Shown here: positions 9,274 through 39,451 of the stretch, piece by piece
Layout of the letters: each line of letters opens with the position of its first letter
Numbering within the stretch: the first letter of the stretch is position 1
Virus record (IMG/VR): IMGVR_UViG_3300008262_003578
Direction: 5' to 3' (one strand)
Length of the DNA: 64,000 nucleotides
Source of the DNA: a virus
Position numbers and translations under genes: made by a program
The notes under the pieces: model-generated
Told to the model about the DNA's origin: nothing
Seen by the model: the letters and a program-made list of their open reading frames with translations, nothing else
The model's database searches: none

Positions 9274-9275
9274 TT

Positions 9276-9911: not shown

Positions 9912-9969
9912 ATTCCATTTTTTTATTATTTAAATTATTGTTAGGGTAATATTATTATTAATTAATAAA

Positions 9970-11815: not shown

Positions 11816-11817
11816 TT

Positions 11818-13770: not shown

Positions 13771-13771
13771 T

Positions 13772-16722: not shown

Positions 16723-16725
16723 ATC

Positions 16726-18732: not shown

Positions 18733-19137
18733 TTAAGCAATGTTCTCTTCTGTATTATCAAATGTGACTAAGCTAATAACTCTCACCATTCCTTTATCAC
18801 CATTAGGATTAAATCCTGGTTTTGGTTCATTAAATGTCTCACCTGTTGGTTTAAATGATAGGATTTTATCAACTCTAAATAATCTCCACCCAGGTAATGG
18901 TTGTTCACCTTTATATCCTGTATGAGACGCTCCCGAATTATCCCAAGCCCTTAATACTGGGTTATCTGCTTTACTATACCCAAAACAAACAGGCTCAATT
19001 TCACGTAAACCTTTACCTCCTGGTTCATCACCATCATAATAAATAATAACTTTGCGTCGTTTATTAATTGCATCACTTAATGATTCTATTGATGCGACTT
19101 CTAATAATACCGACTTAAATGTATCTATTAATTTCAT
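18733..19137 (-). CDS. Stand-alone WYL-domain protein
   Basis: AI...VIIYY...REIEP...LRAW...WRLFRVDKI pattern typical of the WYL (Sm-like) fold. Confidence 0.7.
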   Translation of the reverse strand: MKLIDTFKSVLLEVASIESLSDAINKRRKVIIYYDGDEPGGKGLREIEPVCFGYSKADNPVLRAWDNSGASHTGYKGEQPLPGWRLFRVDKILSFKPTGETFNEPKPGFNPNGDKGMVRVISLVTFDNTEENIA

Positions 19138-20750: not shown

Positions 20751-20766
20751 ATCACTTTTTTTTATA

Positions 20767-20793
20767 ATAAATACTTCGTTTTAGAGTATTTAT
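20767..20793. promoter_or_regulatory. Back-to-back divergent TATTTAT putative late promoters
   Basis: ATAAATA at 20767-20773 and TATTTAT at 20787-20793 between divergent genes. Confidence 0.55.
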
Positions 20794-20803
20794 CTTAAAA
20801 AAG

Positions 20804-23644
20804 ATGGCGGGTCAAAATATAAATCAATATGTTTATCCAAATTGGGGCGTAAAACTCGTTAATGAGTCATATGATATGTCGTTAACGTCTGACGAACAAG
20901 GGTACAATCAAGAGGTTGTTTTCTCACCATATTTGATTGCTCAAACATATGGTAATAAATTACCCGTTTATTTTGATATTGATAATCCTCTAACATCTCA
21001 AGGTTTAAACTTAACATATAAAAATTATAATCTTAATAATATATTTGTTTCTCAAAACTATTATGAAACTAATGATTTAGATTTAAATTGTTTTACAGGT
21101 CATTCTTCTTGTGATATTGGTTTAACAGGTATTGATAATGGTTTAGTATCTGAAATGACGGGACAAACCATAAATTTTACTAATGGGTTAATTAATGACT
21201 CATTAAAGTTTACACGACTTAATTTTGATAGGAGACTTAAACTATTTCAAACCACAGGATACACTAGTTCACCTAACATTAGATTTTCAGGTTTTGATAA
21301 AACTATATTATATGAAGTTGTAAGTAAAAACGACCCTTTTGTCGGTAAATACCACGAACTATATGGAGGGTTTTATCAAGGGTTCTATAAATTATTTGGG
21401 TATGATTATGATATTTTACCTGAAAGAATGAATAAAGGTTGGTCAGTTGAGATGATTCTAAAACCTAGATTAATTGATGAATATTTTCCTGGCCCCAATG
21501 AAACAACTTTAAACGAAATTTACCCTAATAATAAAAATACATTCTTTTATTTTGGGACTAGAGCGGAAAATAAATTTTATCATCACGCTGATGGTACCCC
21601 AAATTGTTTTACAGGGTACACAAGAGTAACAACACCTTTAACGGGATTAACTACCTGTGCTTGCTGTAATAAAACAATAACGGATAGTCGTTGTATATAT
21701 GTTTACCCTCCTAGGTCGGTAAATAATATTCACGACCCACACGTTAATTATGGTTGTAATTTATGTAATGGTAACCGAGAGAAAAAAATAACTTGTGGAT
21801 GTGACTGTAAAGATTATACTTGTGAAACGTGTGGATGGGAATGTTTTGAACATAAGTGTGACACTATAATAACACCTACCCCAACTCCATCGCCCACACC
21901 TACACCCACACCTGACAATTGTGTTATAATACCAACTTGCACACCAACATGTACTAAATGTGATACTTGCGATGATTGTAAATGCTCAACAACAGGATTT
22001 ACATCAGTTGAGAATACTTGCGAGGTGGACCCATTGTTTGATTCATTATCCAACGCAATATCGTTCAGATTATGCGGTGACCCTAAAAACCCTCAAATAG
22101 GGGTTAGAATGTTATCAATTACAGGTGATTGTCAAACAACGGGCTCTTGTGAAAACACTGGTGTTACATTCACGACAGGGTATACGATAGTTGATTATTG
22201 TACCCCACCTATATACCCAAGATGTGAACAAGAAAATCCTGCTTGGTTAGAGGAAGAACATTGGTTCCAAGTTAATATTGTGTGGGAAAGATACAATTGG
22301 TTAGATGAATGTGATTTATTATTTAGAGGTGGTTTAGATACAATAACTGAAAAACTTTATTTAGAATCATTGGCTAATAACACGGTTTCTTTGGTTAATG
22401 TACCTTATACTAAAGTTGACGGAAAAACTGCTGAACAAATTGAAATTGTTAAGTTAAATGATAGATGGATAAGTGAAAAAAATTACCGAGAAGGTAGGTT
22501 AAAAATATATATTAATGGTAAAATATTTTATACAATTGAGAATTTTGAGGAATTAATTCCCAGAGCTTTAGATACTGATAAAGAAAAACAAGTTGGGGTT
22601 CCATTTAACATCTCGTGGGGTGGGGGTACTCAAGGATTACGAGAAAACTTAACATTTTCATCAACAACGTTACCATTTGGGCCTTATATACAAGACCCTG
22701 AATGTTTTCCAATTAACGATTTAACAGGAACAACATTTAATGGTCTAAAAACTAATATATTAATAGAGCAAAATTTTGCTGGAACATTTGAAGGTGCTAT
22801 ATCTCAATTTAGAATGTACACGTCTCCGTTATCCGCCCCTGAAATTAAACACAACTTCAAAATTCTAAATCAGAAATTTGAAATGTTTAATCCTGATTGC
22901 CCTGATTGCTCAACAAAGGTATGTGAAATTAATGATTTTACTTACGTTATTACTGATACAAATGATATACTTGAAGAATCAATTGAAATACCTCATCCAT
23001 TAGGAAGAGTATATATTCCTGACGAAAGAGACAAAAATTATTTAATTGAGGATAAGTTAAAACTTAAAAACACAATATTAACAACTAAGTATTGGGACGC
23101 CGATGAATGGTGGGGCAATCAAGAAAACACCCCTCAATGTGTTGGATATGCTTGGGCTCATTGGATTGAGGACGGACCAGTTAAACATGAGGGTATATCC
23201 CCAATCATCAATCCAACCTTAATTTATAAAGAAGCTCAAAAATTAGATGAGTGGGTTGGTGAAAATTATAATGGTACATCAGTTAGAGGTGGCGCTAAGT
23301 ACTTGAAAAATACAAATAAGATTTCGTCATATTTATGGACTTATAATATTAACGTATTAATAGATACTGTTTTAACTAAAGGCCCTGTAGTTGTGGGAAC
23401 TAATTGGTATAGGTCAATGTTTTTCCCTGATAAGAATGGTTTAATGAGGGTCACTGGTAAATTAACTGGCGGACATGCTTATGTAATTAATGGGGTGGAT
23501 AAAAATAAAAAATTATTTAGAATTAAAAATAGTTGGGGGAAAAATTGGGGAAAATCAGGTCACGCATTCATATCATTTAGTGATATGGAAAAGTTAATTA
23601 AACAAAATGGTGAAGTTTGTTTAGCGATAGAGAATAAATTTTAA
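20804..23644 (+). CDS. Probable virion protein: ConA/LamG-like fold with Cys-rich and PT-rich inserts plus C-terminal papain-like (C1-type) cysteine peptidase
   Basis: FEGAISQFRMYTSPLSAPEIKHN resembles a LamG end; GNQENTPQCVGYA, GGHAYVING, KNSWG match papain Q/C/H/N residues. Confidence 0.75.
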   Translation: MAGQNINQYVYPNWGVKLVNESYDMSLTSDEQGYNQEVVFSPYLIAQTYGNKLPVYFDIDNPLTSQGLNLTYKNYNLNNIFVSQNYYETNDLDLNCFTGHSSCDIGLTGIDNGLVSEMTGQTINFTNGLINDSLKFTRLNFDRRLKLFQTTGYTSSPNIRFSGFDKTILYEVVSKNDPFVGKYHELYGGFYQGFYKLFGYDYDILPERMNKGWSVEMILKPRLIDEYFPGPNETTLNEIYPNNKNTFFYFGTRAENKFYHHADGTPNCFTGYTRVTTPLTGLTTCACCNKTITDSRCIYVYPPRSVNNIHDPHVNYGCNLCNGNREKKITCGCDCKDYTCETCGWECFEHKCDTIITPTPTPSPTPTPTPDNCVIIPTCTPTCTKCDTCDDCKCSTTGFTSVENTCEVDPLFDSLSNAISFRLCGDPKNPQIGVRMLSITGDCQTTGSCENTGVTFTTGYTIVDYCTPPIYPRCEQENPAWLEEEHWFQVNIVWERYNWLDECDLLFRGGLDTITEKLYLESLANNTVSLVNVPYTKVDGKTAEQIEIVKLNDRWISEKNYREGRLKIYINGKIFYTIENFEELIPRALDTDKEKQVGVPFNISWGGGTQGLRENLTFSSTTLPFGPYIQDPECFPINDLTGTTFNGLKTNILIEQNFAGTFEGAISQFRMYTSPLSAPEIKHNFKILNQKFEMFNPDCPDCSTKVCEINDFTYVITDTNDILEESIEIPHPLGRVYIPDERDKNYLIEDKLKLKNTILTTKYWDADEWWGNQENTPQCVGYAWAHWIEDGPVKHEGISPIINPTLIYKEAQKLDEWVGENYNGTSVRGGAKYLKNTNKISSYLWTYNINVLIDTVLTKGPVVVGTNWYRSMFFPDKNGLMRVTGKLTGGHAYVINGVDKNKKLFRIKNSWGKNWGKSGHAFISFSDMEKLIKQNGEVCLAIENKF

Positions 23645-23659
23645 TTTTAAAAATGGATA

Positions 23660-25438
23660 ATGTCATTAAAAATAACTATAAGTAGTATAAATTATGATGG
23701 TGAATTAGCAACCATATTATTTAAACCTGATAATGATATAGTTACAATTAATTTAGGTGAGGTAACATTACCCTTTGATTTTGAACCTTCTTTGTTAATT
23801 CCCCCAAGAGAGGTGTACGGTACATATACCATCTTAGTTGAAGATGCGGATTGTCCTAATATATTGAATGTGTATAGACCAACACCTACCGTTACTCCTA
23901 CACCCACAAATACTAAAACTCCTACACCTACAAATACTAAAACCCAAACATCAACACCTACATTTAATCCTTGTTTAGTAACTAAAACCCCGACAGTAAC
24001 ACCAACAAATACTAAAACCCCAACACCGACTAAAACCCCAACTAAAACAATTGACCCATGTTTATTAACTAAAACCCCAACACCTAGTATTACATCAACT
24101 AAAACCCCAACACCTAGTATTACATCAACTAAAACCCCAACACCGACTAAAACCCCAGCTAATACCTCAACCCCGACTAATACTCAAACTCAAACTAATA
24201 CCAATACTCAAACCCCAACTAATACACCTACTAATACACCAACCAACACAGAAACCCCAACTGAAACTCCGACTAATACGCCAACTAATACTCAAACGCC
24301 AACCAACACAGAAACCCCAACTCAAACACCAACTCAAACACCAACGAATACAACAACACCAACAATAACATCAACTCCAACACAAACTTCAGCACCTGAG
24401 TGCGACATTCTTTTAACTATAATACCAATAACACCGACACCTACTGTCACACAAACCCCAACTAAAACACCATCACCCCAATGTGATTTTACTTTACAGA
24501 TTAACTTTCCAGTAGAAACACCAACACCGACAGTTACTAACACACCAACAAACACTCCAACAACTCCGTCACCATTTTTATTAGATAATTACCCTAATTC
24601 AGTTGCGGCTTTTTCGGCTAGAAAATTATCATCAACATATTCAGGTCCTTGCATGAGAGTGAGAAGAAATTTTGATAATACCGAATTAGACATTGGTTTT
24701 ACCACAATAAATGGTAAAGTGGTTTTAGATTCACCAGCATTAATGGATTTTGTAACAGGTCCTTATGGTTCTTGGTCTTTTACAGGTGGTTTATATCAAG
24801 GAGTTAATGGTACTGGTTATGTTGTTGTTTGGTATGACCAATCAGGTAATGACAACCATGCTTATCAATATACCCCAAATCAACAACAAGGTGTTGTTAT
24901 AAATGGGACTAGAACGGCACTATTAGATAAAGATGGTAATTATCAAATAACCCCTTACTTACACTCTTTTTTTGAATCAATGGCAAAAGCCCCATTAAGT
25001 TTAACAACAAATATACAAATAACCGCAGCATTTACTTTAGGTCAAGTATTTTCTCAAAATAATATTAACTACATATTCTTCGGGTCTAGCGGGTCAATCG
25101 GTGGAGCTTGGTATAACGGTTCTTTCGTTGATGCTCAAGGACTTGGATTCTTTGACGGAGTATTGGCATTTAGTTTAACGGGCGAAGATTTATTATCTCA
25201 CTTAGGTTATTTTGACTTCTCAACGGGTAGAATGTTAATTTCTAAAGATGGTGCACCTTCACAAGATTTGGGGGCGTCGTTGACACCAATTAATCTTACT
25301 CATATCGCGGGTAGAACTGGGTCAAGTGCATTATATTTTAGAGGTGGGGTTAATGAATTTGTGTTCTATAATACAGACCAATCGGTAAATAAAGTAGGTA
25401 TTGAGACCAACATAAACAATTTTTATAACACATATTAA
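23660..25438 (+). CDS. Mucin-like T/P-rich protein with C-terminal ConA-like (arabinofuranosidase-B-like) domain
   Basis: Shared N-domain, about 230 aa of TPTK/TPTN repeats, AAFSARKLSSTYSGPCMRVRR. Confidence 0.7.
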   Translation: MSLKITISSINYDGELATILFKPDNDIVTINLGEVTLPFDFEPSLLIPPREVYGTYTILVEDADCPNILNVYRPTPTVTPTPTNTKTPTPTNTKTQTSTPTFNPCLVTKTPTVTPTNTKTPTPTKTPTKTIDPCLLTKTPTPSITSTKTPTPSITSTKTPTPTKTPANTSTPTNTQTQTNTNTQTPTNTPTNTPTNTETPTETPTNTPTNTQTPTNTETPTQTPTQTPTNTTTPTITSTPTQTSAPECDILLTIIPITPTPTVTQTPTKTPSPQCDFTLQINFPVETPTPTVTNTPTNTPTTPSPFLLDNYPNSVAAFSARKLSSTYSGPCMRVRRNFDNTELDIGFTTINGKVVLDSPALMDFVTGPYGSWSFTGGLYQGVNGTGYVVVWYDQSGNDNHAYQYTPNQQQGVVINGTRTALLDKDGNYQITPYLHSFFESMAKAPLSLTTNIQITAAFTLGQVFSQNNINYIFFGSSGSIGGAWYNGSFVDAQGLGFFDGVLAFSLTGEDLLSHLGYFDFSTGRMLISKDGAPSQDLGASLTPINLTHIAGRTGSSALYFRGGVNEFVFYNTDQSVNKVGIETNINNFYNTY

Positions 25439-25439
25439 T

Positions 25440-25667
25440 ATGATAGTATTAGGTTATAAATATACAACTGAAAATGAGGCTAAAGAAGCCACTAAATTAT
25501 GTGACCAATTTTATGGATACCCTAAAGAAGGTTGTTTATCTAAAAGTTGGTGTGAATACGAGTATTATGAGACGGATGATTTTTATTACATAGTTTATGG
25601 TGATACATTAAAAAATGTATTAGGTGAACCTTCAGAATTAAATATTAAAATAACTAACCCTTTATAA
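25440..25667 (+). CDS. Small hypothetical protein, possible fibre chaperone
   Basis: 75-aa ORF coupled between fibre-like genes. Confidence 0.55.
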   Translation: MIVLGYKYTTENEAKEATKLCDQFYGYPKEGCLSKSWCEYEYYETDDFYYIVYGDTLKNVLGEPSELNIKITNPL

Positions 25668-27487
25668 TGTCATTATCAATAACCATAGCAAGTATTAATT
25701 ACAACGGACAAGTTGGGGATATCACTTTTTACCCACTTACTGGTGGTACGATAAACATCGGACCACAAACAATACCGTATGTTTATTTCACAGATTACCC
25801 ATATGGGGTGTATGATATTTATGTTTCATCATATGATATAACTTGTTCAGTTTCAATAGCACCTCCAACACCAACCCCAACTAATACACCAACTGAAACT
25901 CCTACAAATACTCCTACAGAAACTCCTACAAATACTCCTACAGAAACACCAACCAACACACCTACTGAAACTCCAACTCCTACTTCTACCCCAACAAATA
26001 CTCAAACACCAACTAACTCTATAGTATCATCAGGATTGATAATGAATTGGGATATTCAAAACACAAGTTCTTATAGTGGTAGTGGGTCAATAATAACTGA
26101 CTTACAAGGTAATATAAATGGGACAATGACAGGTGTTATTTCATACACAAACGATTCTCCGAAATATCTAACTATTGATGGTGGAGTATCTGAGTATATA
26201 TACACATCAAATATTAACCCATACTTATCACCTGTAAATACAGGAACGGCTCAATCTACTTTCCTTTGGATTTACCCAACATCTAATGGTATAATTTATT
26301 CTGAACAAGGCTCTCTTTCACCTGACTTTGGTTGGTTCGATGTTCAAATTCAAAGGGATTCTAGTGATAGATTTTTATTCGGAGTTTGGCCATACACTAT
26401 CAATGGTCCTGCACCAATAACATCATCCATTACTCACTCTCTGAATAATTGGTATTATGTTGGTTGGACATATAATGGGACCACACTTACTGCGTATGTA
26501 AACGGAACAATGGTTGGAATATCAACCTATTCGAGAGACACACCATACAATTTAGGGCCTAGTTTACCGATGTATTTCAATTTCGGATACCCATCCACTA
26601 CGGATTTGACAACAACAACTTCCGCTTGTTCTTATAGATTAGGTGCGGTTCAAATTTACAACATTGGTTTATCGGGGGCTCAAGTGTTACAAAACTATAA
26701 TTATGATAGTGCTAAATATATATTACCCACACCAACACCAACAGTTACCCCAACTAACACACCAACTACAACAAAAACCTCAACACCATCGGCAACACCT
26801 AGTATCGTAACATCAAACTTACAACTACAATTATCACCAAGTAGTTATATTGGCTCAGGAACTGTTTGGGATACAACTGTTGGGACTACAGATGCGATTT
26901 TATCGGGTAGTCCAACTTATAATATATTAAGTGGGTTTACATTTAATGGAACTACTCAATATGGTAGAATACCAAGTGTTGATGGTGTAACGAACTTTAC
27001 AAATACCAGTGAGTATACTGTTGAAATTTGGTTTAACCCATCGTCGGGTCAAGCAAATACTGCTGAAGCCGAAATATTAGAGAAATGGAATCAGACTAAT
27101 CAATTGAGGTATCCATATGTTTTTAGATACGCCGAAAATACTGGTACGGTAACCGCGGCAGTTTATGATGGTACTACTTTTAGAAATATAAACTTAACAG
27201 GATTCCCAACAAATACGTGGGCACAAGTCGTGGGGGTTTTCAACTTCACAACAGATGTCTTCACACTTTATAGAAATGGTGTATCGGGAGGCACCGCCAG
27301 TTTAGTGGGTATAGGACAAGTAAGTAATACAAGTTCGGTTGGTATTTCGTGTAGACTTAAAACCGATGGGACAGGTGAGATATTTTTCAAGGGAACAGTT
27401 TCAATAGTGAGAATATATAACACTGCTTTATCGTCCTCTCAAGTGTTACAAAACTTTAATGTAGATAAAACAAAATACGGTTTATAA
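25667..27487 (+). CDS. T/P-linker protein with two LamG/ConA-like domains
   Basis: [21 protein letters not shown] and WAQVVGVFN...TLYRNG; [17 protein letters not shown]. Confidence 0.8.
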
Positions 27488-27491
27488 TAAT

Positions 27492-28823
27492 ATGTCATTT
27501 TCAATAATCATATCAAGTGTTAATTACAACGGACAGGTTGGGGATATTACTTTTTATCCTTTAACTGGTGGGACTATAAATATAGGTCTTCAAACTATAC
27601 CGTATACTTATTTTACTGACTATCCATATGGAACATATGATATCTATTTTTCTTTTTACAATAAAACTTGTTCGTCAACAATAATTCCACCAACACCCAC
27701 ACCTACCAATACTCCTACTGAAACCCCTACCAATACTCCTACTGAAACCCCAACTAATACTCCAACAGAAACTCCGACTAATACTCCTACCAATACACCA
27801 ACTGAAACACCAACTAATACGCCCACCGAAACACCTACTAGTACACCTACTGAAACTCCGACTAGCACACCAACTGAAACGCCAACTAACACTCCTACTA
27901 ACACCCCTACAGAAACGCCGACCAATACCCCTACAGAAACTCCAACCAATACTCCTACAGAAACTCTAACACCCACTCCTACTGAAACACCAACTGAAAC
28001 GCCAACTGAAACGCCAACTAATACTCCTACCGAAACCCCTACCAATACACCAACTAATACACCAACTGAAACGCCAACTAATACTCCTACTGAAACACCA
28101 ACTGAAACGCCAACTGAAACGCCAACTAATACTCCTACCGAAACCCCTACCAATACTCCAACTAATACACCAACTGAAACGCCAACTAATACTCCTACCG
28201 AAACCCCTACCAATACTCCTACTGAAACACCAACTAATACCCCTACCAATACACCGACAGAAACCCCTACTAATACACCTACTGAAACTCCTACTAGTAC
28301 ACCAACAGAAACTCCGACAAACACGCCAACCCCGACTGAAACACCAACTAATACTCCTACTAACACTCCTACCGAAACCCCTACTAATACACCTAGCTCG
28401 TCAATAACACCTACACCAACTGAAACACCAACTGAAACCCCAACTAATACTCCTACCGAAACCCCTACTAATACACCTAGCTCGTCAATAACACCTACAC
28501 CAACTGAAACACCAACTAATACTCCTACTAACACTCCTACCGAAACCCCTACTAATACACCTAGCTCGTCAATAACACCTACACCAACTGAAACACCAAC
28601 TAATACTCCTACACCAACACCAACAGAAACACCTACTAATACACCTAGCTCGTCAATAACACCAACCCCGACTGAAACACCTACTAATACACCAACACCT
28701 AGTGTTACCCCAACAATGACAGTAACTCCAACACAAGTCGCTAGCTTATTATTATTACAAGATGGTAGTCCTATAACACTACAAGACGGTTCGGGAGGAA
28801 TTAAATTACAGTTTAGTTTATAA
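27492..28823 (+). CDS. Mucin-like protein composed almost entirely of TPTE/TPTN repeats
   Basis: About 345 aa of tetrapeptide repeats between a 65-aa shared N-domain and a short LLQDG C-tail. Confidence 0.85.
27690..28735 (+). repeat. Coding 12-nt-period degenerate tandem repeat (TPT[NE]) with four longer [12 protein letters not shown] units
   Basis: Synonymous third-position variation throughout; ACACCTAGCTCGTCAATAACACC occurs four times between about 28390 and 28665. Confidence 0.9.
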
Positions 28824-28870
28824 TAGTCTATACCATAAAATTATGACTACTATATTTATCTAATAGGACT

Positions 28871-30298
28871 ATGCAAATTATTGAAATCACAAGTGTTACA
28901 GGAACTTCACCTTATGATATTATTATATGTGATATAACATATACGTATTGTTATACTGCAGACACTGGAGTAGTTTCAATCCCCCCAACATTGTATGTTA
29001 ATTTACCAATAGAATTGTATGGTTCCCAAAGTGTAATTGTGAAAATAGTTGATTCGTTAGGATGTGAAGAAATCCAATTTGTGGAATGTCCGCCGACACC
29101 AACTCCAACCCCAACACTGACTATAACACCAACAATAACACCAACAAATGCTAATTGTGTTTGTTTAACGTTTACAAACCCAACCTTGAGTACATTAGGG
29201 TTTAGTTATACTAATTGTGATAATGGAGTGGTTAGTTTTACAATTAACCCTTTAACTATCATATATGTATGTGGTTCAAACCCTGTTTATGACTCAGGAG
29301 TTGAGGTAACTATTGGGTCTTATTGTGTTGGGAACGTATGTCCACAACCAACACCAACACCGACCGCAACTCAAACACCAACACCGACTATACCAGGTAT
29401 AATCGGTTCATTTGTTAGCTGTTGCGACTCAAATATAGAATTTAAAGTTAGTAATATACCATATTATCATTATCCATTATCGGGAGTTTATTATATTGTT
29501 AGTTCAGGGTTTCAAGGATGCGCAACATATATACCAACAACGACATCAACAAATATATACGTATGTTCATTAATAGGTTCCCAACCCGATTGTTATTTTT
29601 GTGATATATCTCACCCTGATGTTTTATGTCCTACATCTACACCAACACCTACTAACACCCCAACTGTAACGTCAACACCAACACCTACACCAACTAATAG
29701 TGTTATTTTTGTTAAAAGAGTCGCATTAGATTGTTGTACTATGGAGGGTAAAGTCATCAGCGTACCTTCATATTTAACGTCAGGTGATATTGTAAAAGCA
29801 ACTAATGGTAATTGTTATACTTTATTAGTAACAACACCAGCAAGTGCTAATATAATTTGGGATGGAACAAGCTACGGTGATTGTGAATCTTGTATTACTT
29901 GCCCAACACCAACACCAACACCAACCGAGACGCCAACTAATACCCCAACACCTACTAATACGCCGACTAACACTGTTACATCAACACCATTATTAGTGGT
30001 TTGTTTCCAGTATACTTACTCAACATTTTTAGGTGATTCTGACACAATTTATCAAACAGGATACTATAACTCTAAACCTTACTACACTTTAACTTATGGT
30101 TTTGTTTGGTTTGATATTGGCACATCTTTATGGATTTGGTCAACTTTATTAGGTGGTGGTATTACTTTAGATACATTAAATAATGGGGGATTATTCTACC
30201 CGTATTGTTGTTCATTCTCCCCGTCATATCCTAATTGGGATAACATTAATTCACCTTCTGATTTTATGTCAGTTTCAAGTGTAGGGGGATGTGCTTAA
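28871..30298 (+). CDS. Cys-rich modular protein with PT linkers, probable virion decoration/fibre protein
   Basis: Small CC/CxxC modules separated by TPTPTP linkers; TATTTAT upstream. Confidence 0.65.
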   Translation: MQIIEITSVTGTSPYDIIICDITYTYCYTADTGVVSIPPTLYVNLPIELYGSQSVIVKIVDSLGCEEIQFVECPPTPTPTPTLTITPTITPTNANCVCLTFTNPTLSTLGFSYTNCDNGVVSFTINPLTIIYVCGSNPVYDSGVEVTIGSYCVGNVCPQPTPTPTATQTPTPTIPGIIGSFVSCCDSNIEFKVSNIPYYHYPLSGVYYIVSSGFQGCATYIPTTTSTNIYVCSLIGSQPDCYFCDISHPDVLCPTSTPTPTNTPTVTSTPTPTPTNSVIFVKRVALDCCTMEGKVISVPSYLTSGDIVKATNGNCYTLLVTTPASANIIWDGTSYGDCESCITCPTPTPTPTETPTNTPTPTNTPTNTVTSTPLLVVCFQYTYSTFLGDSDTIYQTGYYNSKPYYTLTYGFVWFDIGTSLWIWSTLLGGGITLDTLNNGGLFYPYCCSFSPSYPNWDNINSPSDFMSVSSVGGCA

Positions 30299-30359
30299 AT
30301 AAGTGAAATTATATTTATTTTTTAATTTGTAAGGTTATTTTTTTCATAAAAAGTTAACT

Positions 30360-31607
30360 ATGAAAATATTTGTTCAGATTGCCTCATATAGAGACCCCCA
30401 ACTTATCCCTACAATTAAAAGTATGATTGAAAATGCTAAACGACCAAAAAACTTGGTTATTGGTATTTGTAGACAATATCACCCTGAAGATGGTTTTGAT
30501 TCTTTGGAGGAATATTCAAAAGATAAACGATTTAGAGTTGTTGATGTTTTATATTCAGAATCTAAAGGTGTTTGTTGGGCGAGAAATCAAGTCCAACAAT
30601 TATATGGTGGTGAAGAATACACTCTTCAGATAGATTCCCATATGAGATTTGAAAAGGATTGGGACGACACTCTAATTAAGATGGTTAAACAACTTCAAAA
30701 GAAAGGGTTCGAAAAACCTTTACTAACGGGATATGTTTCATCATTTAATCCTGAGAATGACCCCGCGGAAAGAATAAGAGAACCTTGGCGAATGGTGTTT
30801 GATAGATTTATACCTGAAGGTGCGGTATTTTTCTTACCTGAGACAATACCTGGCTGGGATAAATTAAAGGAACCAATCCCTGCAAGATTTTATTCCGCTC
30901 ATTTTGCGTTTACATTAGGTAAGTTTAGTGAAGAGGTACAACACGACCCTGAGTTTTATTTTCACGGAGAAGAGATTTCAATAGCGGCAAGAGCATATAC
31001 TCACGGATATGATTTGTTTCACCCTCATAAAGTAGTTATTTGGCACGAGTATACAAGAAAAGGTCGTGTAAAACAATGGGATGATGATAAAGATTGGGGT
31101 ACTAAAAATAATGTGTCTCACGCAAAAAACAGACAATTATTTGCTATGGATGGTGAAGAGGTAACCATTGATTTCGGAAACTATGGTTTTGGAACCGAAA
31201 GAACTTTAAGAGATTATGAAATATATTCAGGACTTTTGTTTTCAAGAAGAGCAGTGCAACAATATACTTTAGATAAACAATATCCACCTAACCCACACAT
31301 TTATGAAACTGAAGAAGAGTGGTTGAGTAGTTTTGCAACAATATTCAAACATTGTATTGATATTGGTTATGATAGTGTACCTGAAGATGATTATGATTTT
31401 TGGGTGGTTGCCTTCCACGATGAAAATGATGAAACTATCTATAGACAAGATGCCGACCCAGGAGAAATCCAAAGAATGAAAAATGACCCTGATGGTTATT
31501 GTAAAGTGTGGAGGCAGTTTCAAACAACACATAAACCATCTTATTGGGTTGTTTGGCCGTATTCCAAGTCTAAAGGATGGTGTGACCGATTAACAGGAAA
31601 TTTATAA
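30360..31607 (+). CDS. GT60-type polypeptide alpha-N-acetylglucosaminyltransferase (Skp1 Gnt1/TcOGNT-like)
   Basis: IFVQIASYRD, SKGVCWAR, LQIDSHMRF (DSH), SAHFAF, YFHGEE, WHEY. Confidence 0.85.
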   Translation: MKIFVQIASYRDPQLIPTIKSMIENAKRPKNLVIGICRQYHPEDGFDSLEEYSKDKRFRVVDVLYSESKGVCWARNQVQQLYGGEEYTLQIDSHMRFEKDWDDTLIKMVKQLQKKGFEKPLLTGYVSSFNPENDPAERIREPWRMVFDRFIPEGAVFFLPETIPGWDKLKEPIPARFYSAHFAFTLGKFSEEVQHDPEFYFHGEEISIAARAYTHGYDLFHPHKVVIWHEYTRKGRVKQWDDDKDWGTKNNVSHAKNRQLFAMDGEEVTIDFGNYGFGTERTLRDYEIYSGLLFSRRAVQQYTLDKQYPPNPHIYETEEEWLSSFATIFKHCIDIGYDSVPEDDYDFWVVAFHDENDETIYRQDADPGEIQRMKNDPDGYCKVWRQFQTTHKPSYWVVWPYSKSKGWCDRLTGNL

Positions 31608-31611
31608 TTTA

Positions 31612-32364
31612 ATGGAAGATATTAACTATTCAGTTTGTATAACTACCTTCTCAAGAAGGTATTCGTATGTGGAAAAATTAGTGACCCAAGTTAGGGAATT
31701 AACTAACTGCGATATATTAATTGCGGTCAATGGTGATTATAAACAAGATTTTAACAATGATTACCGAAAACAAATTTTAGAATTATGTTTAAAATTTGAT
31801 AACGTGTTCCCAATATTTTTTCCAGAACAAAGAGGTTTATCTAAGTTGTGGAATACTTTGGTGGTTCACAGTAAACAAGATTGGTGTTTAGTATTAAACG
31901 ATGATGTTGAATTAGACAACGATGAGGTATTTAAACTTACAATACCTGGTTTAGGGGACAAACCTGATTTACGAAGAATTAACGGTTCTTTCTCGCATTT
32001 TTTAATACATAAAGATTGTTTAGATGAAATAGGTTATTTTGATGAGAGGTTATTGGGTTTTGGTGAAGAAGATGGTGATATTTTTTATAGATATATTGAG
32101 ACGTATAATCAATGGATACAAGAAGCTTGGGTTCACGGATTTAATAATTTGGTGATAGATATTAGAGATGAAAATATAAAACCTGGGGTAGGAAAATACT
32201 CTCAATTTAACCGACATTTTTGTTTTGTTGATGACCCTTGTAAATATGTTCCAGTATCTGAAGGTATTACAGGACTATTTGGTCAACATATGAAAAAAAA
32301 TATTGAGGATTTAAAACAATATCCGTATGAAAAATTCTTTAAAGAAAATAAAGATAAACTTTAA
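31612..32364 (+). CDS. GT-A glycosyltransferase (GT2/GT7C-like)
   Basis: LNDDVE and GYFDERLLGFGEEDGD. Confidence 0.75.
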   Translation: MEDINYSVCITTFSRRYSYVEKLVTQVRELTNCDILIAVNGDYKQDFNNDYRKQILELCLKFDNVFPIFFPEQRGLSKLWNTLVVHSKQDWCLVLNDDVELDNDEVFKLTIPGLGDKPDLRRINGSFSHFLIHKDCLDEIGYFDERLLGFGEEDGDIFYRYIETYNQWIQEAWVHGFNNLVIDIRDENIKPGVGKYSQFNRHFCFVDDPCKYVPVSEGITGLFGQHMKKNIEDLKQYPYEKFFKENKDKL

Positions 32365-32367
32365 AGT

Positions 32368-33306
32368 ATGATTAAAATTAAACTAGAGTGTTGGTGGACA
32401 GATACTAATTCATTAAACAACCGATTTATTAAACAATTTGTATTTGACCAAGATGAATTTGAATTTGTCACTAATAATCCTGATTATACGGTGGTGTTTG
32501 GTAGAACCGATTGGGAAAATATAGAAACTCCTAAAGAAAAAACTTTTTATTTCTCTCAAGAACCATTATGGTCACCTAATGAACCCAAAGATGGTATACA
32601 TGAATTTTGTTCTAAAATTTTTATTGCCGATAAACGAGAATACCCTAATAGAGGTGAGTACATTGAGACATTATTACCAATGTTCTACGGTGGTAGAGGA
32701 GATATTGACCACAGAGAAGAATGGGATTGGTCAAAGAATATTCTATATAAGAACTTTAATAAAACAAAACCTATCTCAATGGTTGTGAGGAAAGATTATT
32801 CAACACATTACAATCACCTATCAAATCCCATAACTTCTAAAATTAACTATATACAAAGAACTGACTTAGGTATAAAGTTATCAGATAATGAAAATATTGA
32901 TATATTTGGGACGTATTGGGAGTCAAATGGTAAAAACATAAAAGGTGAGGCGTGGAATAAACATGTAGGGGTTGATGATTACAACTTTTCAGTATCTTGT
33001 GAAAACTCAATACAAAAAAATTATATAAGTGAAAAATTTTGGGACGTTATATTAACAGACGGAGTTCCAATTTATTTAGGTTGTGTTAACATTAATGAAT
33101 ACATACCCGACAATTGTTATATTAATATTAGTGACTTAAATAATGATGAAATTACAAATGTGGTAGAATCCATAATTAATGATTACGATTTTATTTATAA
33201 TTCAAAAAAAAATGATATTTTAAAATTAAAATCTAATTTTTTTAAGGACCCAAATTTTAACCTTTGGGAAAAAATAAAAGAAACGATAAAAAAATATGAG
33301 TACTAA
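32368..33306 (+). CDS. GT10-like (alpha-1,3-fucosyltransferase-type) glycosyltransferase
   Basis: YNFSVSCENS...YISEKFWD...GVPIYLG matches the GT10 core motif. Confidence 0.75.
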   Translation: MIKIKLECWWTDTNSLNNRFIKQFVFDQDEFEFVTNNPDYTVVFGRTDWENIETPKEKTFYFSQEPLWSPNEPKDGIHEFCSKIFIADKREYPNRGEYIETLLPMFYGGRGDIDHREEWDWSKNILYKNFNKTKPISMVVRKDYSTHYNHLSNPITSKINYIQRTDLGIKLSDNENIDIFGTYWESNGKNIKGEAWNKHVGVDDYNFSVSCENSIQKNYISEKFWDVILTDGVPIYLGCVNINEYIPDNCYINISDLNNDEITNVVESIINDYDFIYNSKKNDILKLKSNFFKDPNFNLWEKIKETIKKYEY

Positions 33307-34189
33307 AATAGTAACAGCCATTTATTCTAATTTACACGGAACAGAATTAGGTGGGAGACCTAGTAGAGGAGGTCATTATAGATATTCACTAAGAACTATT
33401 TTAAAAATGACTGACGCTGATTTTGTTTGTTACACTTCAGAAGACGAACTTGAAAGTTTAAAAGAGTTTTTCTATGTACAAAACAAAATTAGTGAAGATA
33501 GATTAATTATCAAAACGTTTGATTTAAAAAATTTTAGTCTAACTGAAAAAATAAATAAAATTAAAAATGTTAATGAGACTAAACAATCTGACCGTTGTGT
33601 TGAGGTGCAGTATTGTAAATTTATATGGTCATTGGATGAACTAGAAATTGGTAATTACGATAACGTATATTGGTTTGATGCTGGGTTGTCACATAGCGGA
33701 TTGTTTCCCCCAAAACACATGAACAATATTGGATATTGGGAACAAAATTATGAATCAACTTTATTCAATAATGAGTGTCTAAACAATCTAATTGATTTTG
33801 CGGATGATAAAATAGTTTTATGTGCCAAAGAAAATGTTAATAATTTTTGGTCAGGAACCGTACCATATGAATACTATAAAGAACACTGTATGGAACGACA
33901 TATAATTGGAGGTTTTTTTGGTGGAAAAAAAGAAAAAATGAGAGATTATTGTAAACTATTTTTAGAATATGTAAACAAACTTTTGGATAATGAAAATAAA
34001 CTTTATTATGAAGAAAACATTATGTCATTAATGTATTATAATCATAATGGGTTATTTAACCCAAAGTATTTTGATATTTGGTGGCATGAAGAAGATAGAA
34101 TCCCTGGACTTGATTTACATGAATACACAAAAACTAGAAAAAGTTTTTATAAAATATTTGAGGAACTAAATGAAATCTCTATCAATTAA
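33296..34189 (+). CDS. WlaTC/HtrL-like glycosyltransferase
   Basis: KIVTA, YWFDAG, IGGFFGG, EENIMS. Confidence 0.65.
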   Translation: MSTKIVTAIYSNLHGTELGGRPSRGGHYRYSLRTILKMTDADFVCYTSEDELESLKEFFYVQNKISEDRLIIKTFDLKNFSLTEKINKIKNVNETKQSDRCVEVQYCKFIWSLDELEIGNYDNVYWFDAGLSHSGLFPPKHMNNIGYWEQNYESTLFNNECLNNLIDFADDKIVLCAKENVNNFWSGTVPYEYYKEHCMERHIIGGFFGGKKEKMRDYCKLFLEYVNKLLDNENKLYYEENIMSLMYYNHNGLFNPKYFDIWWHEEDRIPGLDLHEYTKTRKSFYKIFEELNEISIN

Positions 34190-34892
34190 CATGAAGTTTT
34201 GGGATGATGGACAACCAAACTCAACTAGAATTAGAAATGTAAATTTTTCTTGGGGTGAAATAAAAAAATTTACATCGTTTTTAAAAGATAATGATATAAA
34301 TGCGGTATGTAATTTATATGATTTTTCAGTAGATAGAGTAACTGAGGATTCTATACATATATCTTACCCTTTAGGTGTTTATAAAAAGGCGGAAAAGACT
34401 AACATAATCTTAAACGACCAAAAAAATTATGATTTTTTTATGATGGTTGATTGCGATGCGTTTTTTCATAAAGACGACTATAACAAATTTTTAGAAATAT
34501 TTAAATTTTTAAATGACGGAGATGTTGTGACCTTTGATTTGGCTAAATTAGAAGATAGAGTTAGTGAGTATATTATAGACGGAGAATTTCAAATAGAAAA
34601 GGCCGATTGGTCATATGCATATTCAGGTAACAGAAATAATGGACCTCTTAATGGTTATTTAGGTGGTTTAGGTGGGGTATATATATGTGATACAAACTTA
34701 TTAATAAAATTAGGTGGTTTTAATGAAAAATATGTTGGTTGGGGTGGTGAAGATGGTGATATGTTAGATAGGATATGGTCATCTCAAATACCACACTCAT
34801 TTAAACCTGTTAGAAATTTTGCACCATTTCATTTACCCCATTTTTCTGATTGGGGTAATAAATTATATAATCAAAGATTTGAAAATGAATAA
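34170..34892 (+). CDS. GT7C/beta-1,4-galactosyltransferase-like glycosyltransferase
   Basis: VDCD DxD motif; GGV...GGFNEKYVGWGGEDGD. Confidence 0.75.
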   Translation: MKSLSINMKFWDDGQPNSTRIRNVNFSWGEIKKFTSFLKDNDINAVCNLYDFSVDRVTEDSIHISYPLGVYKKAEKTNIILNDQKNYDFFMMVDCDAFFHKDDYNKFLEIFKFLNDGDVVTFDLAKLEDRVSEYIIDGEFQIEKADWSYAYSGNRNNGPLNGYLGGLGGVYICDTNLLIKLGGFNEKYVGWGGEDGDMLDRIWSSQIPHSFKPVRNFAPFHLPHFSDWGNKLYNQRFENE

Positions 34893-36570
34893 AACAACAA
34901 TTGTAACTGGATTATGGGATATAGGTAGAAATAGTCTAACTAATGATTGGGCCAGGTCTATGGAACACTACCTTAATAAACTCAAAGAACTACTAAAAAT
35001 TGAGGAAAACATGATAATTTTTGGGGATGAAAACCTACAAAAATTTGTCATGGAACATAGGTCTATTTCTAATACTCAATTTATCATAAGAAATTTAGAT
35101 TGGTTTAAAGATAACACTTATTTTGATTTAATACAAAAAATTAGAACCAGTGATGAGTGGTTAAATCAAGTAGGTTGGTTAAGAGAATCAACACAGGCAA
35201 GATTAGAATACTATAACCCTTTAGTAATGAGTAAAGTGTTTTTACTAAACGATGCTCGTATTATGGATAAGTTTAATTCTGATTATCTGTTTTGGATTGA
35301 TGCGGGAATTACTAATACTGTTCATCCTGGGTATTTTACCCATGATAAAGTATTGTCAAAAGTTGATAAATTTGTTGATAAATTTTCGTTTATATCATTT
35401 CCATATGAGGGTGCGAATGAAATTCATGGGTTTAATCTGACCGAATTAAATAAGTATGCAGGTACCGAAGTCAAGTTAGTGTCAAGAGGTGGATTTTTTG
35501 GGGGGCCAAAGGAATCCATATCTGAGATTAATGGAATATACTATCAATTACTAATTGATTCGTTATCAAAATCTTTAATGGGGACTGAAGAAAGTTTATT
35601 TTCAGTAATAACTTACAAACATCCAGATAAGGTGTCTTATTTTGAAATTGAATATAACGGTCTTATAGGTAAGTTTTTTGAGGATTTAAAAAATGAAACT
35701 TTAAATTCTAAACAAGAGGTTATCAAACCTTCAAACGAATTATCATTTACACCACCATCCAAAGATAGTGTCGGGTTATATGTTATTGGGTTCAATAGTC
35801 CAAACCAACTCAAAACTTTAATAGAATCTATGTTGGTATATGATGAAGATTTTATTAAAAAACCACGTAAAATTCTTTTAGATAACTCAACGGATTTTAC
35901 GACAACCCCAATATATTCTGAAATATGTTCTAATTATGGATTTGAACACATAAAAAAAGATAATTTAGGAATATGTGGTGGAAGACAATGGGTTGCGGAA
36001 CACTTTGAGAAGTCAGGTATGGATTATATGTATTTTTTTGAGGATGATATGTTCTTTTACCCAAATAAAGGTGAGGTATGTAGAAATGGGTTTAATAGAT
36101 TTGCACCTAATTTATTTATTAAATCCCTTTCAATAATACAGAAAGAAAAATTTGATTTCCTTAAGTTAAATTTTAGTGAATTCTTTGGTGATAATAGTGT
36201 ACAATGGAGTTGGTATAACGTACCACAAACTGTTAGAGAAGAGTATTGGCCTGACAATCAAAAATTACCTGAATTAGGTACTTCAGAAAACGCACCTAAG
36301 GCGAAATATACTAGTGTTAGAAGTTATGAAGGTGTACCATATGTTACAGGTGATGTTTATTACTGTAATTGGCCACAAGTAGTTTCAAAAGAAGGTAATA
36401 GAAAAATGTTTTTAGAAACAACTTGGGCACACCCATATGAACAAACTTGGATGAGTCACATATTCCAAGAGACTAAGAAAGGTAGAATTAGTGGTGGTTT
36501 ATTATTAATGACACCAACTGAACATAACAGGTTTGACCATTATTCGCGTGAATTAAGAAAGGAAAGTTAA
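34885..36570 (+). CDS. Two-domain glycosyltransferase: HtrL-like N-domain plus GT-A-like C-domain
   Basis: TTIVTGLWDIGR, FWIDAG, RGGFFGG, TEES; C-domain with GGRQWVA and FFEDD; likely start is ATG 34885 rather than 34819. Confidence 0.7.
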   Translation: MNKTTIVTGLWDIGRNSLTNDWARSMEHYLNKLKELLKIEENMIIFGDENLQKFVMEHRSISNTQFIIRNLDWFKDNTYFDLIQKIRTSDEWLNQVGWLRESTQARLEYYNPLVMSKVFLLNDARIMDKFNSDYLFWIDAGITNTVHPGYFTHDKVLSKVDKFVDKFSFISFPYEGANEIHGFNLTELNKYAGTEVKLVSRGGFFGGPKESISEINGIYYQLLIDSLSKSLMGTEESLFSVITYKHPDKVSYFEIEYNGLIGKFFEDLKNETLNSKQEVIKPSNELSFTPPSKDSVGLYVIGFNSPNQLKTLIESMLVYDEDFIKKPRKILLDNSTDFTTTPIYSEICSNYGFEHIKKDNLGICGGRQWVAEHFEKSGMDYMYFFEDDMFFYPNKGEVCRNGFNRFAPNLFIKSLSIIQKEKFDFLKLNFSEFFGDNSVQWSWYNVPQTVREEYWPDNQKLPELGTSENAPKAKYTSVRSYEGVPYVTGDVYYCNWPQVVSKEGNRKMFLETTWAHPYEQTWMSHIFQETKKGRISGGLLLMTPTEHNRFDHYSRELRKES

Positions 36571-36610
36571 TTATTTTATATTATAAAGTATTTATAGTAA
36601 AAAATAATAG

Positions 36611-37354
36611 ATGGAGTTTTTTATTAAAAAAAACGCAACATTACCAGTATTAAAATTACAAGTAGTTAAGGACGGTAGAAGTGATTATAATAACTTTATG
36701 AATACCATAGAGTTGTCCACAATATTCTTTTCTATGGTTGATGTTGAGACAGGGGTTCCAAAAATAAGTAGTAGACCTGCGGGGTTTGTTGAAAAACTTT
36801 TTGAAGACCCTAATGCGGAACCTGAATATTACATCTATTACCAATTCACAAATAAAGACACAAATAGAGTAGGACGTTATGAAGGACAATTCATGTTACG
36901 TAATGATGATGGTGTTTTAATTTTACCAATAAGAGAAAATTTATTTATAAATGTACAAGAGTCTTTTATAAGTGACGAATTACCTTATGAAAGTTGTTAT
37001 GTTTCCGAATTTCCTTGTTGTGTTAACGGACCTTATACTACAACTACAACTACAACACCTTGCCCGACGTGTCCCCCATGTCCACCTGTAACAACAACAA
37101 CAACAACATACAATCCTGTAACAACAACAACAACAACACATATTCCCGTAACAACTACCACAACAACAACTCATACACCATCTTCTACACCGACTAATAC
37201 ACCAACACCATCTTCTACACCGACTAATACACCAACACCAACTCCGACCTTAACTCCAACTCAAACACCACCTGTTGATGTATTAATTAACCCTATAATA
37301 ACTGAGGGTGGTGTGTATATAATAATTGGAAATAACGAATACTTAGAATTTTAA
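36611..37354 (+). CDS. Probable virion protein with BppU-like N-domain and poly-Thr mucin-like segment
   Basis: FFIKKNATLPVLKLQV...YEGQFML; PVTTTTTT repeats; TATTTATA upstream. Confidence 0.6.
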   Translation: MEFFIKKNATLPVLKLQVVKDGRSDYNNFMNTIELSTIFFSMVDVETGVPKISSRPAGFVEKLFEDPNAEPEYYIYYQFTNKDTNRVGRYEGQFMLRNDDGVLILPIRENLFINVQESFISDELPYESCYVSEFPCCVNGPYTTTTTTTPCPTCPPCPPVTTTTTTYNPVTTTTTTHIPVTTTTTTTHTPSSTPTNTPTPSSTPTNTPTPTPTLTPTQTPPVDVLINPIITEGGVYIIIGNNEYLEF

Positions 37355-37387
37355 TATTCTATATAAAATTTATAAAATAAAAAAACT

Positions 37388-39307: not shown

Positions 39308-39321
39308 ATTATTTTTTAAGA

Positions 39322-39358
39322 TAAAAAAAAAGGGGGTCACAAAAACCCTCTTTTTTTA
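39322..39358. terminator. Intrinsic terminator, possibly bidirectional
   Basis: A-tract, AGGGGGT-loop-ACCCTCT, T-tract. Confidence 0.65.
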
Positions 39359-39359
39359 T

Positions 39360-39388
39360 TTGACAAAAAACAAATTTACTAATATACT
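39360..39388 (+). promoter_or_regulatory. Near-consensus sigma70 promoter TTGACA-N17-TATACT for the DNA polymerase gene
   Basis: Read directly from sequence; exact -35 and 17-nt spacer. Confidence 0.75.
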
Positions 39389-39451
39389 TATTGATGTAAG
39401 GTAAATGTCGTTTGTAACGGCAGCAAATGAACCATTTAAAACTATAAGTGT

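Follow-up and report, generated by a model that had tools for sequence, protein, structure and literature searches.

Does a bacteriophage encode the means to coat its own proteins with sugars? The question is raised by a 64,000-nucleotide stretch of viral DNA (IMG/VR record IMGVR_UViG_3300008262_003578; hereafter the window), in which a row of genes for very Thr/Pro-rich proteins is directly followed by the gene of a GT60-family glycosyltransferase (30360-31607, plus strand) and by further transferase genes. Mucin-type O-glycosylation counts as a trait of eukaryotes, and few cases of phage virion protein glycosylation are known. A preliminary description of the sequence had proposed that this phage builds a mucin-like glycosylation system in which substrate and enzyme are genetically linked. 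The family and predicted fold of the enzyme and the association of its gene with Thr/Pro-rich genes support this proposal, and we consider it probable (about 0.65) that phage-encoded enzymes O-glycosylate the phage's own Thr/Pro tracts in the cytoplasm; the tracts in question are probably parts of fibres.

The GT60 enzyme and its structural neighbours

The gene at the head of the glycosyltransferase run is:

30360-31607, plus strand: soluble GT60-family glycosyltransferase (PF11397, E 3e-72, 244.5 bits against a cut-off of 21; phrog_24687)

The motifs IASYRD, DSH and HGEE, from which the protein had originally been assigned to GT60, are all present, and comparison with the PF11397 profile identified it as a family member (E 3e-72), with the match in two stretches that cover profile positions up to 348 of 352. 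Residues D92, H94, E204, E205 and H229 are the same in all of 39 diverse homologues. The AlphaFold model (predicted local distance difference test, pLDDT, 96) has a Rossmann-like core, and model and alignment together display a GT-A fold, a D-x-H metal motif (D92-x-H94) and a downstream His (H229), three residues that would be equivalent to the Mn ligands of GalNAc-T2 as judged from the ranges of the structural alignment. The catalytic GT-A domain (residues ~1-330) is followed by an extra β-rich C-terminal domain of ~90 residues (~325-415) that lies outside the PF11397 profile. Foldseek returned as top matches of the model only polypeptide N-acetylgalactosamine (GalNAc) transferases (ppGalNAc-Ts), and in VIA-align these occupied ranks 1 to 29 (Z 19.3-22.8, ~260-294 aligned residues), with generic GT-A enzymes below them (Z ≤18.1); the kinship of GT60 with the GT27 ppGalNAc-Ts invoked in the preliminary description is thus visible in all 29 top structural neighbours. 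Sequence searches of the PDB with the protein and with the 39-sequence profile found no solved relative. Close homologues in public data number more than 7,400, and clusters at 50% identity number 4,678. Four homologue representatives (P0123, P0124, P0125 and P0129) are giant proteins of 1,600-2,500 amino acids (aa), in which as many as four separate stretches resemble GT60.

Hydrophobic segments were found in none of the transferases or tract proteins, and the reaction is therefore placed in the cytoplasm, as for Skp1 Gnt1. By analogy with characterized members of the family, we propose that 30360-31607 is an initiating polypeptide N-acetylhexosamine (HexNAc) transferase; that the first sugar is α-linked N-acetylglucosamine (GlcNAc) on Thr is a tentative assignment, to which we give somewhat less than even odds.

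Thr/Pro tracts on both sides of the transferase run

Positions 20804-39307 form a single co-oriented block, with tiny intergenic gaps or overlapping genes, that holds six Thr/Pro-tract genes on both sides of the six-gene glycosyltransferase run. The tract genes and the small open reading frame (ORF) among them, together with a tail gene outside the block, are:

20804-23644, plus strand: 946-aa protein at the block head, papain-like C1 peptidase at its C-terminus (PF00112, E 1.1e-6; phrog_16701 peptidase, E 1.4e-56)
23660-25438, plus strand: Thr/Pro-rich protein 1, 592 aa, 125 Thr and 63 Pro, Pro/Thr (PT) tract at residues 69-309 (240 residues)
25440-25667, plus strand: 75-aa ORF between paralogues (ORF call)
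25667-27487, plus strand: Thr/Pro-rich protein 2, 606 aa, 105 Thr, PT linkers at residues 61-119 and 349-380 (59 and 32 residues)
27492-28823, plus strand: near-pure TPTE/TPTN tract protein, 443 aa, 175 Thr, Thr and Pro together 61%
28871-30298, plus strand: Thr/Pro-linker protein 4, 475 aa, 80 Thr, four PT linkers (~30 residues each) separating Cys-rich domains
36611-37354, plus strand: poly-Thr/PT gene directly behind the glycosyltransferase run, 247 aa, folded N-domain and tract at residues 135-225
50415-53459, plus strand: tail sheath (PF17482, PF04984) with poly-Thr in an N-terminal extension (residues ~190-225; Thr/Pro window value 0.70)

All ORFs of the four-gene row at 23660-30298 named in the preliminary description, including the small one at 25440 (without Pfam or PHROG match), are present; the extent given there was too narrow, the set also taking in a linker in 20804-23644, the gene 36611-37354 and the tail-sheath insert. 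The linker, a short TPTPTPSPTPTPTP segment, lies at residues 351-378 of a protein that also has a dense Cys cluster. The sheath is the one bona fide virion protein of the window that carries a mucin-like stretch. In 27492-28823 the tract runs unbroken over residues 58-416 (359 residues) and ends in a short C-terminal tail. The protein of 23660-25438 has a folded C-terminal domain, its C-terminus matching phrog_10356 'virion structural protein' (E 9e-7), and that of 25667-27487 contains LamG/ConA-like lectin-fold domains (PF13385, E 5.6e-25; phrog_8510 'virion structural protein', E 2.6e-24). An N-terminal module of ~62-65 aa is common to the 23660, 25667 and 27492 proteins and, as aligned, diverged in the 28871 protein. 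Sequence search matched this module only within its own clade, and comparison with the Atlas gave sub-threshold matches to viral hypothetical proteins of 72-74 aa; it may serve as an anchor. No signal peptide was found in the PT-tract proteins.

The plus strand was taken as coding because the LamG domains are in frame with the tracts and the N-terminal modules of four proteins align. A 292-aa Gly/Val-rich ORF on the opposite strand (27656-28534, minus) was rejected as a gene, being the antisense shadow of the PT repeat. The tract DNA repeats are degenerate (72-77% matches, with units of 24, 60 and 108 nucleotides in 27492-28823) and use every one of the four Thr and four Pro codons; the repeats are therefore read as old and protein-constrained, not as products of fresh slippage. 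Long Ser/Thr/Pro-rich repeat acceptors, a hallmark of the mucin type, have their counterpart in tracts of 60-360 residues in the window and of up to ~1,550 residues in relatives.

GT60 and tract genes in related phages

A scan of IMG/VR returned 343 loci with a GT60 enzyme (76-87% identity in the best 80 of the 343). A Thr/Pro-rich ORF lies directly upstream of GT60 in 48 of the 63 loci with enough upstream sequence, as expected from the co-occurrence postulated for related phages; most of the other 15 are borderline or have a Thr/Pro-rich ORF a few genes off, and only L062 and L064 have none. The tract genes of relatives are hypervariable in number and length, encoding proteins of 170 to 3,289 aa, and the longest tract occupies residues 164-1717 (~1,550 residues) of a 1,792-aa protein. 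Giant mucin-like proteins of these phages (1,366-3,289 aa) begin with an N-terminal module as in 28871-30298, and the cargo domains of the tract proteins include LamG and β-propeller. The transferases between GT60 and a conserved gene for a two-domain HtrL/YibB-like enzyme (34819-36570 in the window) differ from locus to locus, and a small poly-Thr gene, in a position equivalent to 36611-37354, usually follows the HtrL-like gene.

Contigs of GT60-carrying relatives measure 214, 272 and 322 kb, the 322-kb relative being rated complete. In this genome a homologue of 20804-23644 heads the equivalent cluster (L171:6561-10319), a baseplate-wedge/tail-fibre-connector domain (phrog_677, E 8e-16) forms the end of one PT-tract protein, and another PT-tract gene has the terminase gene on one side and a collagen-like tail-fibre gene on the other. 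With tracts at several of its loci, PT tracts appear as a genome-wide trait of the structural modules of these phages.

GT60 and Pro/Thr-rich genes in bacteria

Since close phage relatives keep gene order by descent, bacterial genomes were also tested. PF11397 homologues were found in many bacterial phyla, and 61 GT60 loci of at least 12 kb each were searched for a Thr/Pro-rich ORF within 8 kb; 18 of the 61 had one, several of these ORFs being directly adjacent and co-oriented. The genome-wide background was estimated in ten genomes chosen for having a Thr/Pro-rich neighbour, by counting sites of strict TPTPTPTP-coding DNA. The sole such site of the genome lay in the gene adjoining GT60 in G002 and G003; all sites lay beside GT60 in G007 and G010, as did 4 of 5 in G006 and 10 of 17 in G004. 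Genomes in which this DNA was unique or nearly so measure 2.8-4.5 Mb. In an unselected control sample of 61 Halieaceae genomes, PF11397 occurred in five, and in two of these five every strict PT site was 2-3 kb from GT60; at approximately one strict PT locus per 8 Mb (a rough count), chance adjacency would be ~0.1% per locus. Neighbourhoods and whole-genome site counts thus extend the association of GT60 with PT tracts to independent bacterial lineages, where it is far above the genome-wide background.

The bacterial GT60 neighbours are of two kinds: small proteins in which Pro/Thr/Ser repeats come after a 'RRxxL...' leader resembling those of twin-arginine translocation (Tat), and proteins with a PqqD domain joined to a tail of this sort. 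The closest cellular homologue of the phage enzyme (Saprospiraceae, 71% identity) adjoins a gene for a protein composed of a leader, (SPTPTTSVSPSNSI)n and a type IX secretion system (T9SS) tail. A homologue of the two-domain HtrL-like enzyme is found beside or near GT60 in 17 of the 61 loci, its identity to 34819-36570 being 45% in Gemmatimonadaceae (L103) and 33% in Halieaceae (L150). Bacterial GT60 operons also contain PqqD-family peptide chaperones and an HprK-related kinase, and a peptide chaperone in the operon argues for a polypeptide substrate. Four operons from Gemmatimonadaceae and Halieaceae (L103:5508-10972, L105:6391-11002, L150:4819-11492 and L144:4880-11457) combine five gene types: a 33296-like gene (see below), the HprK-related kinase A, PqqD (sometimes with a PT tail), GT60 (sometimes two) and the two-domain HtrL-like gene. 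By gene content, these operons resemble the TIGRFAMs 'HPr-rel-A system' (HprK-related kinase A and PqqD-family chaperone) in a form that would glycosylate peptides; the matches are weak (TIGR04352, E 4e-13; PF05402, E 1e-12) and far below the curated cut-offs. Neither the kinase nor the chaperone was found in the phage window, which has in common with these operons only GT60, the two-domain HtrL-like enzyme and the 33296-like gene. A literature search found no described function for the 'HPr-rel-A system'.

In Burkholderiaceae and Alcaligenaceae, the Thr/Pro-rich ORF located 1-5 kb from GT60 encodes a VgrG-like spike protein of type VI secretion, part of which is pure PT (window score up to 1.0; L136:10267-13131, L148:13049-15520, L146:13265-15670, L170:13075-15564 and L135:13066-15351).

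Origin of the phage gene and the cultured relative XacN1

A maximum-likelihood tree built quickly from 84 GT60 sequences (unrooted, short search, with metagenome bins that may hold phage contigs) placed the clade of the window's enzyme as sister to Saprospiraceae, Lewinellaceae and Bacteroidia sequences (Shimodaira-Hasegawa-like approximate likelihood ratio test, SH-aLRT, 97) and grouped the GT60s of the jumbo phages XacN1 and RAS14 with Burkholderiaceae and other Betaproteobacteria (SH-aLRT 99). From these separate positions, two jumbo-phage lineages seem to have acquired GT60 separately from the phyla that they infect. The position of the window's clade points to a Bacteroidota host, probably within the Saprospiraceae/Lewinellaceae part of that phylum.

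XacN1 is a cultured Xanthomonas jumbo phage whose ORF334 is a GT60 homologue with 49% identity to 30360-31607. Its ORF325, of 3,313 aa, lies beside baseplate-wedge genes, 9 kb from ORF334, and contains two short PT linkers. Purified XacN1 virions contain at least two Schiff-positive proteins, and the authors of that study suggested that the phage's own transferases make the virion glycoproteins (PMC5852040).

Putative extension enzymes and probable sugar supply

The remaining genes of the glycosyltransferase run are:

31612-32364, plus strand: GT2-family glycosyltransferase, putative extension step (PF00535, E 4.6e-8)
32368-33306, plus strand: GT10-like fucosyltransferase, putative extension step (PF00852, E 2.6e-14)
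33296-34189, plus strand: 297-aa protein with tblastn homologues in the bacterial GT60 loci L121, L118, L103 and L105
34170-34892, plus strand: GT7 C-terminal/GT2-like (galactosyltransferase-like) enzyme, putative extension step (PF02709, E 4.5e-12)
34819-36570, plus strand: two-domain HtrL/YibB-like and GT-A protein (PF09612, E 5e-18; likely start 34882)

The six-gene run of glycosyltransferases earlier recognized here holds for five genes with a direct Pfam match and not for 33296-34189, which has none. Bacterial homologues of the latter match HtrL_YibB (PF09612) weakly (E 1.1e-5 and 1.8e-3), and the protein is probably a single-domain HtrL-like transferase. The idea that it might represent the HprK-related kinase of the bacterial operons was ruled out, as there is no similarity. 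The model of 34819-36570 comprises two tandem GT-A domains, with LARGE1, K4 chondroitin polymerase (K4CP), heparosan synthase and Mimivirus R699 as the best fold matches; at a low overall TM-score of ~0.25, these are taken as a common two-domain arrangement and not as evidence of kinship. We propose that the enzyme is a bifunctional extender or polymerase.

The opposite strand carries the following genes:

2040-17943, minus strand: probable sugar-supply and transferase genes (Pfam matches)
At 2040, 5561 and 6525, minus strand: GT2; GDP-mannose 4,6-dehydratase; epimerase/reductase (Pfam)
At 7436, 8665 and 9276, minus strand: sugar C-methyltransferase; two FkbM methyltransferases (Pfam)
At 11818, 13772 and 16726, minus strand: second dehydratase; two-domain GT2; weak GT4-like (Pfam)

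Genes for PhoH, dUTPase and exonuclease are interspersed among them. As annotated, this minus-strand set is sufficient to supply deoxy- and methyl-sugars, and we infer that it is linked to the GT60 system. No Wzx-, Wzy- or WecA-type membrane protein was found among the genes examined.

Proposed mechanism and alternative explanations

In the mechanism that we propose, PT-tract proteins would be made in the cytoplasm during infection; each would combine the common N-terminal module with a tract tens to hundreds of residues long and a cargo domain, of the lectin fold or another kind. Soluble GT60 (30360-31607) would transfer the first sugar from a UDP-sugar to tract hydroxyls, by analogy an α-HexNAc on Thr. 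Lengthening of the glycan would fall to the two-domain HtrL-like enzyme (34882-36570) and to transferases that vary between strains (GT2, GT10-like, GT7-like and 33296), and the phage's GDP-6-deoxyhexose and methyltransferase genes would probably feed this step. The products would probably be stiff, protease-resistant and hydrated stalks on the virion that bear binding domains. The tracts as acceptors, the sugar with its linkage and the benefit to the phage are all parts that we infer; protease resistance, spacing and shielding, the benefits suggested, are speculation. Likewise, the proteins of 23660-30298 are placed on the virion by deduction and not by observation, their weak PHROG 'virion structural protein' matches being confined to the lectin-fold ends; a virion location of the four named Thr/Pro proteins appears somewhat better supported than its converse, with indirect support from the poly-Thr of the tail sheath and from the tail-connector domain and tail-fibre setting seen for PT-tract genes in the 322-kb relative. 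For dense O-glycans on the repeats, the Schiff-positive proteins of XacN1 virions are indirect evidence.

Several observations weigh against glycosylation of the tracts by GT60. The association between enzyme and tracts is, at this level, one of gene neighbourhood, and in many proteins that bacteria secrete, PT linkers are common spacers that carry no sugar. The named tract genes sit among replication genes and not in the tail module. Homologues of the 20804-25438 genes form a cluster ~30 kb from GT60 in the complete 322-kb genome, where PT tracts also occur at no fewer than four further loci, so adjacency in the window is partly due to the gene order of this lineage and is frequent, not obligatory. 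Among the bacteria, 43 of the 61 GT60 loci lack a Thr/Pro-rich ORF within 8 kb, and one GT60 neighbour is Pro/Ser-rich without Thr. In a Lewinellaceae genome, a 2-oxoglutarate (2OG)-Fe(II) oxygenase (L096:5374-6000, minus strand; PF13640, E 1e-6) is encoded next to GT60 and to a T9SS protein rich in Pro, Thr and Ser, which hints at a hydroxyproline route there. One characterized GT60 enzyme, Gnt1, is hydroxyproline-specific (PMC6939170), and Thr as the acceptor, an analogy, is not secure.

The transferases and nucleotide-sugar genes could alternatively remodel the capsule or O-antigen of the host, for example blocking superinfection, with the tracts as unglycosylated linkers nearby. Jumbo-phage glycosyltransferase clusters with sugar-nucleotide enzymes have been interpreted as host polysaccharide remodelling (PMC7824862); the GDP-mannose dehydratase, epimerase, methyltransferases and many transferases of the window are typical of polysaccharide loci, and the transferase set differs among relatives in an O-antigen-like manner. 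We nevertheless regard this explanation as unlikely: the GT60 model is nearest to polypeptide and not to polysaccharide transferases, bacterial GT60s pair with PT-rich proteins and PqqD instead of Wzx/Wzy/WecA-type genes, neither a membrane protein nor a lipid-carrier enzyme was found in the block, and glycoproteins are present in XacN1 virions (PMC5852040). Sugars placed on phage DNA bases, evading restriction, are far less plausible still. Such modification is a frequent role of phage glycosyltransferases, cited for large aquatic phages (PMC12619734), and the block is located among replication genes (dUTPase, exonuclease, PolB); however, no base hydroxymethylase or similar enzyme was found among the Pfam matches of the window, the fold matches are protein O-glycosyltransferases, the fucosyltransferase, methyltransferases and deoxyhexose pathway are better suited to complex glycans than to DNA sugars, and the bacterial homologues lie in peptide-modification-like operons.

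GT60 might also act on a polypeptide, of the phage or of its host, at only one or a few defined sites (perhaps hydroxyproline, as in Skp1), and the tracts would then not be the main acceptor. The best-studied GT60, Gnt1, does act on one hydroxyproline of Skp1 (PMC6939170), the L096 oxygenase stands beside GT60 and tract genes, and PqqD in the bacterial operons suggests leader-guided modification of one small precursor. Yet the feature common across phyla is a repetitive Pro and Thr/Ser tract and not a conserved single site, and the GT60 of Trypanosoma cruzi acts on Thr-rich mucins. A homologue of the L096 oxygenase was not found in the window or in any phage locus examined, nor was a 2OG oxygenase among the Pfam-scanned ORFs of the window, and a hydroxyproline route in the phage was discarded for want of such a homologue. 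The chances of this single-site explanation seem marginally smaller than those of host polysaccharide remodelling, and glycosylation of the phage's own Thr/Pro tracts remains our preferred interpretation.

A wider and rather doubtful extension of tract glycosylation is that GT60 and the two-domain HtrL-like enzyme form the core of a widespread, undescribed prokaryotic pathway for cytoplasmic mucin- or proteoglycan-like molecules. GT60 would prime Pro/Thr/Ser tracts and the tandem GT-A enzyme would extend this primer into a chain of repeating units; in bacteria, PqqD would guide the pathway to small leader-bearing proteins, and two jumbo-phage lineages would have captured the pathway independently from host phyla, cladding their virions in a glycocalyx of stalks up to ~1,500 residues long.

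The phage and other features of the window

The window has a G+C content of ~30%. Profile matches include a tail sheath, a gp19-like tail tube protein and a T4-type baseplate protein, and its replication-type genes encode a family-B DNA polymerase, an SNF2 helicase, PhoH and dUTPase, as well as an exonuclease; its source, as judged from these genes, is a large T4-like myovirus. A freshwater origin is probable from the literature context of relatives. A promoter and terminator scan of 20000-39900 gave no more sites than shuffled sequence, and a tRNA scan found none.

Beyond the last tract gene, the block ends with:

37388-39307, plus strand: Asn/Gly-rich protein, 639 aa, mostly NNxIGNxF-type repeats

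This protein, without Pfam or PHROG match, is possibly a β-helical fibre, and its part in the glycosylation system is uncertain; the 322-kb relative encodes a short homologue of its N-terminus (L171:5844-6422). In the tail module, a 1,684-aa ORF (57901-62955), with a sub-threshold OmpA-like match as its sole match, may encode a tape-measure or baseplate-hub-like protein. Residues 1-225 of a 509-aa protein (44976-46505, minus strand) make up a complete Fe/Mn superoxide dismutase, with each of its two Pfam domains, and the ~280 further residues have no match, a fusion unusual in phage. A WYL-domain protein (18733-19137, weak match) and a PhoH-like ATPase (4782-5522, minus strand, E 1e-62) are encoded among the sugar and replication genes.

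Relation to known systems and implications

PF11397 and the D-x-H motif are shared by the phage enzyme and the protist GT60s, namely Gnt1 of Dictyostelium and Toxoplasma, which acts on Skp1 hydroxyproline, and the T. cruzi enzyme, which acts on mucin Thr. Gnt1 is soluble and cytoplasmic, as is the phage GT60 by prediction, and T. cruzi mucins are Thr/Pro-rich, as are the presumed phage acceptors. In the Gnt1 pathway, the two-domain bifunctional transferase PgtA acts next (PMC6939170); the phage run likewise has a two-domain transferase, but HtrL-like and not the GT74/GT2 PgtA. The phage and prokaryotic branch differs from the protist enzymes by its extra ~90-residue β-rich C-terminal domain, and no prolyl hydroxylase partner was found in the window. 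The substrates of the GT27 ppGalNAc-Ts of animals and Toxoplasma, the closest solved structures to the phage model (Z 19.3-22.8), are tandem repeats rich in Ser, Thr and Pro. Structural alignment of these enzymes with the phage model gives 10-16% identity. The GT27 enzymes sit in the Golgi as type II membrane proteins and carry a ricin-type lectin domain, whereas the phage GT60 is soluble with an unrelated small C-terminal domain.

In mycobacteriophages, according to the account in PMC12619734 (citing Freeman et al. 2023), virion glycosylation places glycans on the C-termini of capsid and tail-tube subunits. Mycobacteriophages, and presumably XacN1, exemplify phage transferases acting on the phage's own structural proteins; the candidates here are dedicated tract proteins instead, with up to ~1,550 repeat residues in relatives. 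Giant viruses (chlorovirus capsid glycans, Mimivirus fibrils) encode soluble transferases and nucleotide-sugar and methyl-sugar enzymes for use in the cytoplasm, as the window appears to do, but are eukaryotic viruses with a different initiating chemistry; Mimivirus R699, among other tandem GT-A enzymes, and the two-domain phage enzyme are alike in their two-GT-A arrangement; the overall TM-score is low (0.27-0.28), and the likeness is not taken as evidence of kinship.

Each of the three elements, glycosylation of phage virions, GT60 enzymes and mucin-type glycosylation, is already known. Literature searches on phage GT60, PF11397, HprK-related kinase with PqqD and glycosyltransferase, and mucin-like jumbo-phage proteins found no description of the combined system: neither a soluble GT60-led system that in abundant jumbo phages is linked to Thr/Pro proteins of mucin size, nor the same module of GT60, HtrL-like enzyme and PT protein across bacterial phyla. 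If the proposed reading is true, phages of an abundant lake group use enzymes of their own to make appendages that are mucin-like and coated with sugar, and the GT60/HtrL-like pair would define an unrecognised protein-glycosylation route in many bacterial phyla. It would also provide soluble cytoplasmic enzymes for producing mucin-like glycoproteins in bacteria. The finding would bear on the prokaryotic roots of the GT60 and GT27 enzymes, on the resistance of these phages to proteases and grazers, and on their adhesion to surfaces or hosts.

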